DNA of 44,632 bases, taken from NCBI GenBank assembly GCA_903835325.1, contig CAILMU010000005.1, positions 1-44,632 on the forward strand, read 5' to 3'. Every line of letters starts with the position of its first letter. Position 1 is the first letter of the stretch. Shown here one piece after another: positions 5,315-39,741 of the stretch. The stretch is from an uncultured Candidatus Micrarchaeota archaeon. Lineage in GTDB: Archaea; Micrarchaeota; Micrarchaeia; Anstonellales; Bilamarchaeaceae. The notes under the pieces were generated by a model that saw only the letters and a program-made list of their open reading frames with translations, did not search any database and had not been told where the DNA came from. The translations under genes were made by a program, and so were the position numbers.

Positions 5315-5734
5315 ATGCGGATAATCAGGATGAAGAGCGATATCGCGAAAGAGAGGATGCGCGCATTGATGGATGAAATCGATGCGATTGCGATAAAGAG
5401 CGATACCGTACGCTCGGGAGAAGAGACCGAGCTCGCTTATCATCTCGCGAAAAAATCATTCGAAAACAAGAAAAACATCGCGCGTTCGCTCCGATACGAA
5501 TTCCTTCTCTGGCTGACCGGTAAGAACGACATAAAATCCGCCATGGGGATGAGCGCGCCGAAGGATTCGGCGAACACGGAGACGGGGGAGTTCTTGTTGG
5601 TCGTATTCGCGGACGAGCGGAAAAAATCAGATGAGGAAATCGCTGGGATTTTCAACGCAAAACTGCTTCCTCTTGGATTGGAGAAAAAGTCCGATGCCTT
5701 ATCGCTCGAACGGATATCGCTGTCGCGGATCTGA
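5315..5734 (+). CDS. cgi121: KEOPS complex subunit Cgi121-like
   Basis: At 139 aa it is the right size. NIARSLRYEFLLWLTGKNDIKSAMG parallels the conserved Cgi121 core (..EILVRASGQRQIHEAI..), and the C-terminal LERISLSRI parallels LEKIALIEL. The comparison is from memory and was not aligned. Confidence 0.55.
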   Translation: MRIIRMKSDIAKERMRALMDEIDAIAIKSDTVRSGEETELAYHLAKKSFENKKNIARSLRYEFLLWLTGKNDIKSAMGMSAPKDSANTETGEFLLVVFADERKKSDEEIAGIFNAKLLPLGLEKKSDALSLERISLSRI

Positions 5735-16398: not shown

Positions 16399-16550
16399 AC
16401 CATCCCCTCTCTAGCAATCTATTATTGAAATATGATTAAAAATGTATCTTTCTGGGTAAGAAGTGTTTTTGAAGGCGGGAGGATGGATACGAAAAAGACT
16501 ATTAGAAAAAATCGCATACGGCGGAAAAGAGTGGAACACCAGAAGAAAAC

Positions 16551-32735: not shown

Positions 32736-32775
32736 TTGCCCCCTAAATGTTTAAAAATGCTTGCCCCCTAATTGT
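32736..32775 (+). promoter_or_regulatory. Two 15-bp direct repeats (ttgccccctaaatgt / ttgccccctaattgt) just upstream of fic
   Basis: They match at 14 of 15 positions, start 25 bp apart (32736 and 32761), and end 5 nt before the ATG at 32780. Confidence 0.3.
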
Positions 32776-32779
32776 AATC

Positions 32780-33652
32780 ATGAGCCAGTATATAGAAAAG
32801 AAGGTCATCAAAGGCAGAACTTACTACTATTTTACTGAAAACAAATATATGAATGGAAAATGGAAAAAAAATAGAAAATATCTTGGTGTCGCGACTCCCT
32901 CCGGTTTTGAAAAACCGAGAAGAAAAAAACCCAAACAGATCCTAACCGATAAAGAGATCAAAATCATAGAACTGATCAGAAAAAATTATAGCAAAGCCCA
33001 TCATCTAGATTCTAGATTATGGAGGGAGGAACGTGAGCGTTTCGTGAGCTTTATTTTCAATACCAATGCGATTGAGGGCAACCCCATCACATATGAAGAT
33101 ACCGACACAGTTCTTCGGGGCGGGAAGATAAAGGCAAAGAAGAAAGACGTCCGTGAAATTATGAATATGAAGAAATGCATCGATTTTCTTTTCGGTTATT
33201 CAGGACCGATTGATGAAAGACTTGTATTGAAGCTGCACATAATGCAGATGAGAGGGGTATTGGATGGGGCTGGGCGATATCGTGATGTTGATGTCAGCGT
33301 AGGTAGATACGTCTGTCCATCTAACAGTGAAGTACCGGCTCTCATGAGAAGATTTTTTGTCTGGTTCAAGGAATCGGAAAGCAATATGCATCCATTTGAG
33401 CTTGCTGTGCTAACTCATCTCAAATTTGTGAGAATACATCCTTTTAGGGACGGGAATGGAAGAATGTCAAGACTTCTGATGAACCTGGTCCTGCTGAAGA
33501 GAGGATACCCTCTCCTGAATATCTTCAATGATGAGAAACTGCTCTACTACCTGGTCCTTAGAAAAGTCGATGCAACCAAGAGGCCGAAATCATTTGTCGA
33601 GTATCTGTTTAGCACCTATATTCGGCAGTACGAAGATTATGTGAAGAAGTAA
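32780..33652 (+). CDS. fic: Fic-family protein (AMPylase-type) with an intramolecular inhibitory motif
   Basis: The canonical Fic motif is HPFRDGNGRMSRLL. The upstream TNAIEGN fits the (S/T)xxxE(G/N) inhibitory-helix motif. The ATG at 32780 (MSQYIEKKV) is preferred over 32747. Confidence 0.9.
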   Translation: MSQYIEKKVIKGRTYYYFTENKYMNGKWKKNRKYLGVATPSGFEKPRRKKPKQILTDKEIKIIELIRKNYSKAHHLDSRLWREERERFVSFIFNTNAIEGNPITYEDTDTVLRGGKIKAKKKDVREIMNMKKCIDFLFGYSGPIDERLVLKLHIMQMRGVLDGAGRYRDVDVSVGRYVCPSNSEVPALMRRFFVWFKESESNMHPFELAVLTHLKFVRIHPFRDGNGRMSRLLMNLVLLKRGYPLLNIFNDEKLLYYLVLRKVDATKRPKSFVEYLFSTYIRQYEDYVKK

Positions 33653-33695: not shown

Positions 33696-33723
33696 GAAGG
33701 TAATATTGGATAAGGAAGATAAG

Positions 33724-33795
33724 GGCCATGACCGAGAATCGGACTCGGGCCTAGAGGGCCACAGCCTCTCACGCTACCATTACGCCATCATGGCC
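33724..33795 (-). tRNA. tRNA-His: tRNA-His (anticodon GUG) with genomically encoded G-1
   Basis: The manually folded sequence is GGCCATGATGGCGTAATGGTAGCGTGAGAGGCTGTGGCCCTCTAGGCCCGAGTCCGATTCTCGGTCATGGCC. An 8-bp acceptor includes G-1:C73, the His identity element. The D-stem is GCGU/GCGU with two G-U pairs. The anticodon arm is AGAGG-CUGUGGC-CCUCU. The T-arm is CCGAG-UCCGAUU-CUCGG. No CCA is encoded. Confidence 0.85.
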
Positions 33796-37171: not shown

Positions 37172-37232
37172 GTACCTCAAAATGGTCACCAATGGAGGAA
37201 AAACGGCGATAGCTTTATAAACCTTACACTTA

Positions 37233-37254
37233 TATATCATGATATAATCATGAT
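37233..37254. promoter_or_regulatory. Palindromic operator candidate containing two ATCATGAT octamers 11 bp apart
   Basis: TATATCATGATATA is a perfect 14-bp palindrome (37233-37246). It is followed by a second ATCATGAT (37247-37254). Both lie in the 120-bp divergent intergenic region between 37171 and 37292. Confidence 0.3.
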
Positions 37255-37291
37255 AGTTGCGTGATTTCATCGCAACGGTGTTGGTGATGTC

Positions 37292-37717
37292 ATGGAAGAC
37301 AAGCAATTTAAACCTACTGACAATGCGCTCGCCCGTGAAATCCGCAGCGATCTCGATTTGAACATGGATAAATTCCGGGATCCGGTGGTGCTCGGCGAGC
37401 TCGTTTACCGCCTCCTCGAGGAGCGCGAGAACACGAACAGGCTGCTGAAGAACATCCTGGCGAAGCTGGAGGCCCTTGAGATCAAAGGGACCCAACCGGC
37501 GCTTCCGGTTCATGCCAAGGAGACCATGCTCCCTGAGATAGACGAGCAGATAATCTCGTTCCTCAAGGGCGCTGGCAAAGTCACAGCAGAAGAGGTCCGT
37601 GTGAAGTTCAACTACCGTGGCAAGAACGCCGCATGCGCCCGATTGAACCGTTTGTTCGACCAGGGCCTGATACAGAAGAGACAGGTGGGGAAGAAGATGT
37701 TCTTCTTTCCCGTATAG
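37292..37717 (+). CDS. Small winged-helix DNA-binding protein with an N-terminal helical region
   Basis: The C-terminal part EIDEQIISFLKGAGKVTAEEVRVKFNYRGKNAACARLNRLFDQGLIQKRQVGKKMFFFP has wHTH character (helix-turn-helix followed by a beta-wing). Confidence 0.65.
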   Translation: MEDKQFKPTDNALAREIRSDLDLNMDKFRDPVVLGELVYRLLEERENTNRLLKNILAKLEALEIKGTQPALPVHAKETMLPEIDEQIISFLKGAGKVTAEEVRVKFNYRGKNAACARLNRLFDQGLIQKRQVGKKMFFFPV

Positions 37718-37861
37718 CCGCTATGATATTGCGGCTGATTTATGCTGATGGCAAGGCCGGGAACGGGTCCACCTCCCGCCTCTCAACTTATTGAGATCCG
37801 TTCCCGACTTGTTATCCTCCCACAAAATATATAGAAAAAAAGAAGCGTGAAAAGAAAGTCA
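37716..37861. repeat. Structured tandem repeat, unit A (candidate ncRNA or MITE-like element)
   Basis: The unit begins with the hairpin AGCCGC-9nt-GCGGCT. The 78-nt core at 37745-37822 is identical to 37989-38066. The tail is caaaat...gaagcgtgaa..gaaagtca. Confidence 0.6.
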
Positions 37862-37961
37862 TGCCCAGAGGCTCCGACCAGGGTTTTTGGGCACCTCTCT
37901 TCTTTTCGAAGAGAGTTATGATAGAAAGTCGGGGAAGAGATTTTTTCCCTTTCCCGATGGC

Positions 37962-38181
37962 GGCCGCAGATATTGCGGCCAATTAATACTGATGGCAAGG
38001 CCGGGAACGGGTCCACCTCCCGCCTCTCAACTTATTGAGATCCGTTCCCGACTTGTTATCCTCCCAACAAGGGCTAGCTCCCTGAGCACCATCTCAGGGT
38101 AGCGAGGCTAGCTTCTAATGGAGCTAGACCTTGTTGCCCACAAAATTAAGCAAAAAAGAAGCGTGAATATAGAAAAAGTCA
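37962..38181. repeat. Structured tandem repeat, unit B (interrupted by a 74-nt insertion)
   Basis: The unit begins with the hairpin GGCCGC-7nt-GCGGCC. The identical 78-nt core is at 37989-38066 and the insertion is at 38067-38140. A homologous tail (38141-38181) follows. Confidence 0.6.
38065..38140. mobile_element. Miniature palindromic insertion (MITE-like) with ~15-17 nt terminal inverted repeats
   Basis: It is present in unit B and absent at the equivalent point of unit A. The ends CAACAAGGGCTAGCTCC...GGAGCTAGACCTTGTTG are inverted repeats with one mismatch. CC/CCCA is duplicated at the junctions. Confidence 0.45.
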
Positions 38182-38266
38182 GGAGCTAGAGACTCTTCGT
38201 ATGATTGGTTTCTAGAAATCCTCTCTTTATTATTCTCGGCGCGAAACAGCCCCGGCTATGGCCTGC

Positions 38267-38275
38267 TATTATAAA
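38267..38275 (+). promoter_or_regulatory. TATA-like box (tattataaa) for the gene starting at 38299
   Basis: It is centred about 28 nt upstream of the ATG at 38299, which supports that start over 38278. Confidence 0.4.
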
Positions 38276-38298
38276 CAATGAGATGGAAACCTTTATTT

Positions 38299-39741
38299 AT
38301 GCTTAAACCTTTCGATTTCTCGAGCACCGCTGAGATAGCCATCCCGAAAGACCCGTTCGAACGGATAATCGGACAGGAAGAGGCTGTCCGGATAGCCCGC
38401 ATGGTGCCCTACCAGAGGAGGCACCTCCTACTCGTCGGACCGCCGGGGACCGGGAAAAGCATGATAGCCCAGGCCATCTCGAGCGGGCTCCCTAAACCGA
38501 AATACGAGATTTCGGTGCTGGAGAATCCGGAGATACCAGAGCGGCCGATCATAGAAATCCGCGATTCCGGCCAAATCAATAAGGACAAGAGCGAAGAGAA
38601 GAGGATAGGGCGCGAGATATCCCCGTTCGATGTCCCTTCTTTCGTGGCGGAGAGGCTGGGCCTGCGATGCAGGAGATGCGGGGGCATGAGCGCGTTCACG
38701 GATAATATCTGCCCGCACTGCGGAGCCACGAAGAGCCCGGGGGGGAGCATGTTCGAAAGATACGGGATGCCGCCCCAGAGCCCGGTGCCCCAGGAAGGCG
38801 ATAAGGTCAGGGTCGCCACAACCAGAAGGATGCCGGACGGAAAAGAGGAGGTCATCATCTACGAGCGGACCTCTGATGGAAGGATCACGATACTCACGCA
38901 GGAGGAGATCAAGAAGATAGAGGAGAAGAGCAAGAAATCCAAGCGGAAGGTCCTAGTGCCCCTCACCCGCACCACGTTCGTGCAGGCTGGCGGAGGCACA
39001 GAGACAGAGCTCCTGGGCGACATCAGGCACGACCCATATGGCGGCCATCCGAACCTGGGGACCCCGGTCTACGCCAGGGTGGTCCCTGGAGCGGTGCATG
39101 AGGCGCACGAAGGGGTCCTGTTCATAGACGAGCTTTCCACCCTCGGGAACATCCAGCGCTACATCCTCACAGCGATGCAGGACCGCAGTTTCCCGATAGT
39201 CGGGCGCAACCCCATGAGCAGCGGGGCAGCGGTCAGGGTCGACAGCGTCCCCTGCGATTTCATCCTGGTCGGCGCATGCAACATCAATGATACCAAGAAC
39301 ATCATCCCGGCCATGCGATCCAGGATCCGGGGCGACGGCTACGAGGTGCTCATGAACGCATACATGGAAGACACCAAGGACAACCAGTACAAGCTCGTGC
39401 AGTTCATCGCCCAGGAGATAAAGAAGGATGGCAAGATACCGCAAGCAGATAAGGCCGCCGTGGCTTTATTGCTTGAGGAGGCCAGGAACATAACGCGGAA
39501 AATCGACAACGCCAAAGGCCTGACGCTGCGCCTGCGCAACCTGATAGGGATAATCAAGATGGCCGGCGACATCGCGGCCATGGAGAAAGCCCAGTTCATA
39601 ACCAAGAAGGACATCACCGTCGCGATAAAGGAGTCGAAGACCATCGAGGAGAAGGTCAAGGAGAAATACGGCAACTGGTGGGCGAGCGAAGCGGCCGACC
39701 ACGGCATAAAGAGCGAGAAGGCAGGCCCCGAGACCGCGTGA
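38299..39741 (+). CDS. Lon-like AAA+ ATPase without a recognisable protease domain; carries a Zn-ribbon insertion
   Basis: The LonB-like N-terminus is FERIIGQEEAVRIARMVPYQRRHLLLVGPPGTGKSM (Walker A). Walker B is GVLFIDELSTL, and RSRIRGDGYEV is the sensor/arginine region. CRRCGG...CPHCG is inserted between the Walker motifs. The protein ends shortly after the AAA lid. Confidence 0.75.
   Translation: MLKPFDFSSTAEIAIPKDPFERIIGQEEAVRIARMVPYQRRHLLLVGPPGTGKSMIAQAISSGLPKPKYEISVLENPEIPERPIIEIRDSGQINKDKSEEKRIGREISPFDVPSFVAERLGLRCRRCGGMSAFTDNICPHCGATKSPGGSMFERYGMPPQSPVPQEGDKVRVATTRRMPDGKEEVIIYERTSDGRITILTQEEIKKIEEKSKKSKRKVLVPLTRTTFVQAGGGTETELLGDIRHDPYGGHPNLGTPVYARVVPGAVHEAHEGVLFIDELSTLGNIQRYILTAMQDRSFPIVGRNPMSSGAAVRVDSVPCDFILVGACNINDTKNIIPAMRSRIRGDGYEVLMNAYMEDTKDNQYKLVQFIAQEIKKDGKIPQADKAAVALLLEEARNITRKIDNAKGLTLRLRNLIGIIKMAGDIAAMEKAQFITKKDITVAIKESKTIEEKVKEKYGNWWASEAADHGIKSEKAGPETA

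Follow-up and report, generated by a model that had tools for sequence, protein, structure and literature searches.

A structured RNA family of Micrarchaeota found downstream of a winged-helix gene

DPANN archaea have tiny genomes and are mostly uncultured, and to our knowledge almost no regulatory RNAs have been described from them. A contig from an uncultured Candidatus Micrarchaeota archaeon (GenBank assembly GCA_903835325.1, contig CAILMU010000005.1; 44,632 nt, called the window throughout) carries a hairpin-rich tandem repeat between a gene for a winged helix-turn-helix (wHTH) protein and a gene for a Lon-like AAA+ ATPase, and this locus raises the question of what the repeat is and what it does. 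An earlier note, made from the letters of the window, had offered two identities, namely a novel structured RNA or a pair of miniature inverted-repeat transposable elements (MITEs). For the RNA it had suggested sequestration of Shine–Dalgarno (SD) sequences or a cis-regulatory leader function. We find that the repeat belongs to a new structured RNA family of Micrarchaeota, whose structure, strand, boundaries and phylogenetic distribution emerge from the comparison of relatives. With unusually clear comparative support, a single locus across the Micrarchaeia lineage and repeated tandem amplification, this family provides a handle on RNA-based regulation.

The tandem repeat and its distribution among relatives

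The repeat in the window consists of two units. A 98-nt direct repeat (37725–37822 and 37969–38066) has 96% identity at a spacing of 244, and its four mismatches all lie at or before 37744, which leaves a 78-nt core (37745–37822 and 37989–38066) identical at 78 of 78 positions. Two sub-patterns of the core motifs occur exactly twice each in the 44.6-kb window, against none expected. Upstream of each core lies a 6-bp hairpin (H1 and H1′) whose closing pair differs in a compensatory manner between the units, and the first of these overlaps the stop codon of the wHTH gene. The H1 stem is likewise preserved through compensatory changes in three loci from relatives (loci are given as L numbers), L001 (GCCGTG/CACGGC), L003 and L004. 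The core includes the 12-bp stem CGGGAACGGGTC/GATCCGTTCCCG. Downstream of the core, a tail (37823–37851 and 38139–38167) recurs with 83% identity, at a spacing of 316 instead of 244, from which it follows that copy 2 carries a 72-nt insertion between core and tail.

Much of what the earlier note had described is borne out by these comparisons, including the identical core and its offset, the compensatory upstream hairpins, the overlap with the stop codon, the core stem and a further hairpin between the units (H4). The note had also recorded the repeated tail, which is present in both copies, and had missed the insertion that displaces it in copy 2. Its description of a tandem, hairpin-rich array was sound as far as it went, and left out a second module of the unit, a hairpin (H3) with a T run. 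The unit is larger than the core, each module being about 130–150 nt. The TCTCAA/TTGAGA apical hairpin that had been assigned to the core is present in the window and is not conserved among relatives.

Both copies are found in independent assemblies of close relatives (L001, L003/L008 and L004/L005/L009), and the duplication is therefore no assembly artefact. Two public European Nucleotide Archive (ENA) contigs with an identical ATPase gene begin 505 nt and 45 nt upstream of that gene, at points within the repeat array or shortly past it; short-read assemblies thus seem to break at the perfect 78-nt repeat.

To define the family, syntenic loci were collected by exact matching of proteins and by a single metagenome scan for the wHTH protein, and a covariance model (R1) was built from nine copies with a specified structure of an 8-bp P1 and a 12-bp P2. 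This model identified 31 plus-strand instances, scoring 25–98 bits, in 22 loci (216 kb). Further instances in Ca. Bilamarchaeum dharawalense and in another metagenome-assembled genome (MAG) give a total of 24 distinct lineages, whose wHTH proteins are 55%–90% identical to that of the window. Every RNA instance lies directly downstream of the wHTH gene and on its strand. Allowing up to 2 mismatches, the motif ACCTCCCGCCTCTC occurs just downstream of the wHTH gene on the same strand in nearly every locus, and the loop motif stays invariant even where wHTH protein identity has fallen to 55%. Minus-strand matches to the model are weak mirror images that reach at most 23.5 bits. Two more distant loci, with wHTH identities of 48% and 42%, yielded no RNA even when the model filters were switched off. 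The family appears from these matches to be specific to a Micrarchaeota lineage (class Micrarchaeia, Bilamarchaeum/Anstonellales-type relatives).

The earlier note had named a count of copies in relatives and an Rfam scan as checks on its proposals. The first confined the RNA to one syntenic site, with no covariance-model match elsewhere in about 270 kb of relatives, and the second matched no family. Specifically, Rfam 15 at the gathering score returned tRNAs only (window and 14 loci), its E-value mode gave noise in the region (E above 3), and ARAGORN reported no tRNA or tmRNA in the repeat region. When GTDB species genomes were scanned with the 18-mer CCCGACTTGTTATCCTCC, which includes 4 nt of the variable P2 stem and so detects near-identical copies only, the one match was a chance occurrence in a Clostridia MAG. 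A blastn search of plasmid and phage collections gave no match, and two pattern scans of viral contigs gave none. A second CTCCCGCC site in the window, at 16474 on the minus strand, is without hairpin context and was treated as chance.

Most lineages carry one copy of the RNA. Two copies are found in the window and in L001, L003, L004, L010, L011, L023, L031 and L032, and L006 carries three. The flanks specific to each copy and the hairpins H4 and H5 between the units are orthologous among the window, L001, L003 and L004, which dates the duplication to before these lineages diverged. The two cores show no differences in the window, none in L004 and seven in L001, where one copy resembles that of L004 (3 differences) and the other that of the window (5 differences). 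The RNA has therefore undergone tandem amplification with concerted evolution. As judged from these sequences, the pattern of the copies is that expected if gene conversion between tandem copies acts on top of purifying selection.

Structure, strand and conserved elements of the RNA

The core hairpin, about 80 nt long, is formed by P1, which is AUGGCAAG/CUUGUUAU with two conserved G·U pairs, by P2, which varies from 10 to 13 bp, and by a large, pyrimidine-rich loop. In the model-guided alignment, all 20 base pairs show double-sided changes. Cells of P1 and P2 pair in 94.6% of cases, compared with 35–44% when the 3′ partners are slid by 1–3 columns; the covariation score is 0.51, compared with 0.06–0.08 in the slid controls, and none of 500 shuffles reaches any of these measures. 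Because this alignment was fitted to the structure, the 29 distinct sequences were also folded singly, and their minimum free energy (MFE) folds contain P2 in 26 of 29 cases and P1 in 26 of 29. An alignment made with MAFFT only and examined with RNAalifold recovered P1 alone and missed P2 because stem lengths vary, and the covariance-model-guided alignment was thus required. For unit 1 of the window, the plus strand folds at −49.4 kcal/mol (z = −4.7) and the minus strand gives z = −1.7. The MFE fold of the unit 1 core recovers all 12 P2 pairs and all 8 P1 pairs.

Two of the P1 pairs are G·U in 23 and 25 of the 29 sequences, and these would be A·C mismatches on the opposite strand. The conserved G·U pairs, together with the strand asymmetry of the model scores (95 versus 23 bits), argue that the functional molecule lies on the wHTH-coding strand and is RNA rather than duplex DNA. 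We regard the element as almost certainly a structured RNA of the plus strand. The novel structured RNA that the earlier note had listed as a candidate is in this respect upheld by covariation across 24 lineages, strand-specific G·U pairs and the lack of an Rfam match.

Three parts of the RNA are nearly invariant: AUGGCAAGG on the 5′ side, (A)CCUCCCGCCUCUC in the loop and CUUGUUAUCCUCCCA on the 3′ side. The loop begins with the invariant (A)CCUCCCGCCUCUC, and its remaining 8–25 nt are variable. Neither the loop motif ACCUCCCGCCUCUC nor the tail UCCUCCCA takes part in pairing, whether in the consensus structure or in the MFE folds. The tail is absent from some secondary copies. The two CCUCC-type tracts to which the earlier note had drawn attention are among these most conserved parts. 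Within P2, GAA/UUC pairs are nearly invariant while the adjoining pairs covary freely. In L010, L031 and L032, extra hairpins separate the 3′ strands of P2 and P1 with the core retained, and the word ACUUG is present in duplicate at the junction. By analogy, these insertions seem to behave like the expansion segments of functional RNAs.

In seven loci (L010, L015, L021, L022, L025, L027 and L031) the variable 3′ part of the loop often contains AUUUUUG or AUUUUUA. This sequence resembles an Sm-site, and its T5 run could also terminate transcription inside the RNA.

Hairpin H3 follows an A-rich linker, and its apex, C-U-C-Y-GACC-A-G-G-G, is conserved while the stem changes (GCCCA/TGGGC, GCCGG/CCGGC, CTAGAAAC/GTTTCTAG and GAAATCC/GGATTTC). 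An ungapped MAFFT alignment of 19 H3 copies shows 86.8% pairing, compared with 28–59% in slid controls, and a covariation score of 0.53, compared with at most 0.29; one U·G pair is conserved. In unit 2 of the window H3 is degenerate, and L003 has CCTCTCTTTTTTATTTTC at the same position. Among the relatives, L003/L008, the closest, is the only one that shares the 72-nt insertion of unit 2. The insertion resembles H3 in its first part (GCUAGCUCC CUGA...CAGGG UAGC), and its ends are the 8-bp inverted repeats CAACAAGG/CCTTGTTG. A bulge-helix-bulge intron was considered as the identity of this insertion and rejected, as no such motif can be drawn at its ends. The features of the locus are listed in Table 1.

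Table 1. Position, strand and basis of the features in and around the tandem RNA units of the window
Feature	Position	Strand	Basis or remark
wHTH gene (141 aa)	37292..37717	+	RNA always follows on same strand
Hairpin H1, unit 1 (AGCCGC-9 nt-GCGGCT)	37716..37736	+	overlaps TAG stop at 37715–37717
Core hairpin, unit 1	37747..37824	+	covariance-model match, 95.5 bits
Pairing, unit 1	P1 37748–37755 with 37808–37815; P2 37758–37769 with 37795–37806	+	covariation
Loop motif ACCUCCCGCCUCUC, unit 1, invariant	37771..37784	+	columns invariant in alignments A1 and A4
3′ tail UCCUCCCA, unit 1, invariant, single-stranded	37815..37822	+	alignments
A-rich linker, unit 1	37823..37862	+	
Hairpin H3, unit 1, conserved CUCC-GACC-AGGG apex	37863..37892	+	covariation, ungapped alignment
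Hairpin H4 (CTCTCTTC-ttttc-GAAGAGAG)	37895..37915	+	conserved in L001, L003, L004
Hairpin H5	37930..37956	+	conserved in L001, L003, L004; holds T6 run 37941–37946
Hairpin H1′, unit 2 (GGCCGC-7 nt-GCGGCC)	37962..37980	+	
Core hairpin, unit 2 (loop motif 38015–38028, tail 38059–38066)	37991..38068	+	covariance model, 94.5 bits
72-nt lineage-specific insertion, stable hairpin module	38067..38138	+	fold z = −4.6
3′ end of unit 2: A-rich tail, degenerate H3′ (38186–38215, CTAGAGAC/GTTTCTAG), U-rich end	38139..38237	+	
Lon-like AAA+ ATPase gene, leaderless-type, with TATA box 38268–38276	38268..39741	+	Pfam; outside the RNA

Transcription and possible functions

An oligo-T tract is the usual intrinsic termination signal in Archaea. 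Among the 23 first units, none has a run of five or more T residues between the wHTH stop codon and the core, a gap of −2 to 147 nt (median 29). In 15 of the 23 the first such run lies 27–60 nt past the core, in 7 it lies inside the loop, and a run of this kind follows H3 in most units; in the window, the T6 run inside H5 is the likely end of unit 1. Upstream of the units, A/T-rich 8-mers concentrate between −15 and −8 relative to GGCAAGG. An archaeal TATA box would lie farther away, as does the box of the neighbouring ATPase gene (−34 to −27), and the units are therefore without a canonical promoter. Since no terminator separates the RNA from the wHTH stop codon and no TATA box lies where a promoter would need it, the wHTH transcript most likely includes the RNA as its structured 3′ part. 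Its co-transcription with the wHTH gene is a strong inference from sequence, and an origin in the 3′ untranslated region (3′UTR) is probable.

In general, this arrangement recalls CpxQ, DapZ and SroC, which are bacterial small RNAs (sRNAs) derived from or embedded in 3′UTRs. As in those cases, the RNA lies directly after an open reading frame (ORF) on the same strand, with no terminator between the two and no canonical promoter of its own, and apparently shares the terminator of the mRNA. It differs in that it comprises one to three tandem modules, which is unusual, and in that it would be an archaeal (DPANN) example, predicted from sequence.

On balance we favour the reading that the units are tandem modules of a previously undescribed structured RNA family with a trans-acting partner. 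The RNA would be transcribed as the 3′ part of the wHTH mRNA, ending at the U-run past H3, and might later be trimmed to a stable small RNA. Its hairpins would serve as scaffolds on which the two invariant C/U-rich segments are presented to the partner, and this is the weakest step of the proposal. Most likely these segments would base-pair with another RNA at a G/A-rich site (GAGAGGCGGGAGG-like), and the number of copies, from one to three, would then set the dose. Recognition in trans through the C/U-rich elements is judged somewhat probable; taken singly, an RNA partner is a tentative possibility and a protein partner a more doubtful one.

Several observations weigh against this proposal. 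Searches for complements of the loop allowing G·U pairs gave self matches only in 241 kb of related sequence and a number of matches close to that expected by chance in the window. That the RNA is expressed at all, where it ends and how it is processed are predictions from sequence, and the T5 run inside the loop of seven first units could cause premature termination. Seeds that pair with mRNA are usually shorter than the 13-nt invariant loop, which would suit a protein or rRNA as partner just as well. The RNA could also act purely in cis on the wHTH mRNA.

The bacterial RNAs RsaE/RoxS and IsrR of Firmicutes are close in general design, being small structured RNAs that expose several unpaired C-rich tracts in loops or linkers, end in a hairpin with a U-run and are sometimes duplicated. 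They share no sequence or structure homology with the RNA described here, which has an archaeal host and a longer conserved tract (12–14 nt). The SD-sequestering role raised in the earlier note would follow their example, in that the two exposed CCUCC-containing tracts would pair with SD sequences and thereby block translation, as is the case for the C-rich regions of RsaE/RoxS; C-rich sRNAs that target SD sequences are well documented in bacteria (PMC5419742, PMC9410917). In six related loci, however, 18 of 71 genes have a GGUGA-type SD (including the wHTH gene, with GGUGAU), only 3 of 71 a GGAGG-type SD, and 34 of 71 look leaderless, and the ORF starts of the window show similar usage. Pairing with GGAGG in the manner of RsaE/RoxS is thus unlikely where SD sequences are of the GGUGA type and rare. 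The invariant part of the RNA is CUCCCGCCUCUC and not AUCACC, so it is not the complement of the SD sequences in use, and the anti-SD-like CACC of the window copy is not conserved. We consider this role very improbable, and the presence of invariant CCUCC tracts in a lineage that hardly uses GGAGG sequences raises the question of what reads them. The MITE pair of the earlier note, or its counterpart in DNA-level protein-binding palindromes such as operators or iterons, has in its favour the repeated unit rich in inverted repeats and the 72-nt insertion with 8-bp inverted ends. The units are confined to two tandem copies in the 44.6-kb window, with no dispersed copies there, in about 270 kb of relatives or in the GTDB 18-mer scan. 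They keep the same position and orientation in all 24 lineages, are flanked by orthologous hairpins and linkers and have neither terminal inverted repeats nor target-site duplications, and the G·U pairs and strand asymmetry described above point to RNA. There is accordingly next to no room for an element acting as DNA.

A role confined to the wHTH mRNA deserves more weight, although we hold it to be improbable. A cis-acting 3′UTR might stabilize the message against 3′ exonucleases, set its 3′ end or feed back on its own translation or decay, and would suit an RNA that is contiguous with the wHTH ORF with neither terminator nor promoter between, whose H3 and U-run look like a transcript end, and a wHTH gene that is otherwise heavily controlled by a promoter palindrome, a 5′UTR hairpin and an SD sequence. 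Against this, stabilizing hairpins need no 13-nt invariant loop and invariant tail across 55–90% protein identity, extra copies with their own H3 and U-run would add little, and inspection reveals no convincing complementarity to the wHTH 5′UTR. Pairing of the RNA with this 5′UTR, and an 8-bp match of the loop to an archaeal 16S segment (GGCGGGGG), were set aside as too short to mean anything. Slightly less improbable, though still unlikely, is a decoy or scaffold in which CCUCCC-type tracts, two per unit in up to three units, titrate or recruit an RNA-binding protein in the manner of CsrB/RsmZ; candidates are a KH-domain protein or another reader of the CCUCC 3′ end of 16S rRNA (Pno1/Dim2, Nob1 or KsgA), or the wHTH protein itself. 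As in the CsrB/RsmZ sponges, several hairpins display the same short motif in their loops and lineages differ in copy number. L006 has a row of three motif hairpins, of which two are bare (without tail or H3). The invariant stretch of 12–14 nt exceeds the usual seed, and the near-invariant GAA/UUC beside covarying pairs in P2 suggests a sequence-specific contact. The motif here is CCUCCCGCCUCUC rather than the GGA of CsrB/RsmZ, and we know of no CsrA in Archaea; the wHTH protein has an ordinary DNA-binding fold. The decoy would also draw on the 5′ half of the RNA, which shares with the 16S 3′ end the order CAAGG, GAAC, (C)ACCUCC and then CGCC, but this likeness consists of short words, needs three gaps and was drawn with 16S sequences of other organisms.

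Taken further, the same likeness would make the RNA a mimic of the organism's own 16S 3′ end (end of h44, h45-like GAAC, CCUCC tail and Nob1 D-site trailer) that is made from the mRNA of an autoregulated transcription factor. Such an RNA would bind factors of small-subunit maturation or initiation (Pno1/Dim2, Nob1, KsgA) or the free CCUCC-recognizing site and so couple ribosome maturation to a regulatory circuit in DPANN archaea with reduced genomes. The elements follow one another as CAAGG ... G(G/A)GAAC ... (C)ACCUCC in both, the Nob1 substrate of P. horikoshii, GAUCACCUCCUAUCGCCGG, has a layout similar to that of the 5′ half of the RNA, and in P. horikoshii pre-16S rRNA CGCC follows CCUCC as it does here (PMC3326319); the tail UCCUCCCA also contains CCUCC. 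The h45 hairpin, however, is not reproduced, the GAAC segment forms one strand of P2 and the correspondence is limited to short words, and we rate the mimic a long shot. Should the trans-acting partner of the favoured reading prove to be a ribosome-maturation factor or rRNA, a transcription-factor gene would be tied to the translation apparatus in a way that is new.

Several known classes of RNA element were examined and excluded. Archaeal C/D box and H/ACA guide sRNAs are often co-transcribed with an upstream gene and are, like this RNA, small archaeal RNAs. The units contain no pair of C and D boxes, kink-turn, two-sided pocket or spaced ACA, and no Rfam snoRNA model matches them at threshold. 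For the C/D class, UGAUGG occurs in a subset only (the consensus is just AUGG), and there is no CUGA at the 3′ end and no kink-turn. For the H/ACA class, the loop is one-sided or terminal, there is no GA/AG kink-turn, the CAC/CAA that follows the tail is variable and no correctly spaced ACA is present. An archaeal selenocysteine insertion sequence (SECIS) was rejected given that the wHTH ORF has no internal stop codon and no Rfam SECIS model matches. A small ORF starting from AUGGCAAGG was likewise rejected, as the motif occurs in all three frames, several copies contain stop codons and some lack an AUG.

A riboswitch or other leader of the downstream gene, in line with the cis-regulatory leader of the earlier note, does not fit the locus. 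An A/T box lies at −34 to −27 in all ATPase orthologues (the TATA box of the window is at −31), the gene looks leaderless, and in L006 a HEAT-repeat gene rather than the ATPase follows the RNA.

Neighbouring genes and other features of the locus

In the wHTH protein, a long helix at the N terminus precedes a C-terminal winged helix that resembles those of MarR, ArsR and BlaI. It has 401 homologues, all of the Micrarchaeota type, and is highly conserved, with 39 invariant residues among 33 sequences. The possibility that it is a specialized RNA binder was rejected, as profile and structure searches returned only ordinary DNA-binding winged helices of the MarR/ArsR/BlaI type. The product of 480 aa on record for the ATPase gene places its true start at ATG 38299, whereas the product from the mechanical ORF start at 38278 is not on record. 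Homologues of the ATPase and of the wHTH protein all come from Micrarchaeota-type DPANN archaea, including Candidatus Bilamarchaeum (class Micrarchaeia, order Anstonellales).

The promoter and 5′UTR of the wHTH gene (37213–37291 in the window) are nearly invariant across the clade, and the same conserved region is seen in L001, L003, L004, L006, L010–L014, L017, L020, L024, L031 and L032. It contains the element CTTTATAAA and the palindrome TATCATGAT-N3-ATCATGA(C/T)A, which is probably an operator shared with the divergent gene, and the 5′UTR carries a hairpin (GTTGCGTGATTTCATCGCAAC) followed by the SD sequence GGTGAT. At the other end of the gene, the last codons (G-K-K-M-F-F-F-P, 37687–37711) form a perfect hairpin, GGGGAAGAAGA/TTCTTCTTTCCC, and the same inverted repeat is present in every homologue. 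Either an RNA structure superimposed on the ORF or simply the KK..FF codons may account for it.

Additional non-coding structure surrounds the RNA in some relatives. In L004 (10650–10760), L001 (4220–4310) and L032 (3730–3975), the last RNA unit and the ATPase promoter are separated by a further GC-rich, hairpin-rich stretch. These stretches have the words GCRAAGCCAU, CCRCCAGGG and GGACCGG in common, are absent from the window and L003 and have no Rfam match. The 580-nt gap of L006, a Bilamarchaeum MAG, contains added hairpins (5351–5470 and 5535–5690) with GAAA/GUAA-type loops and CCUCC/GGAGG stems. In the same locus a GAUGGCAUAAGG...CCUUGGUUCCUU domain precedes the first motif hairpin, and similar upstream hairpins are found in L011 and L031.

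Elsewhere in the window, GC content drops to 0.43 between 32000 and 34000, around a Fic/DOC-family gene (32747–33652) that lies beside tRNA-His (33723–33794, minus strand). This region may be a small segment acquired at the tRNA gene.

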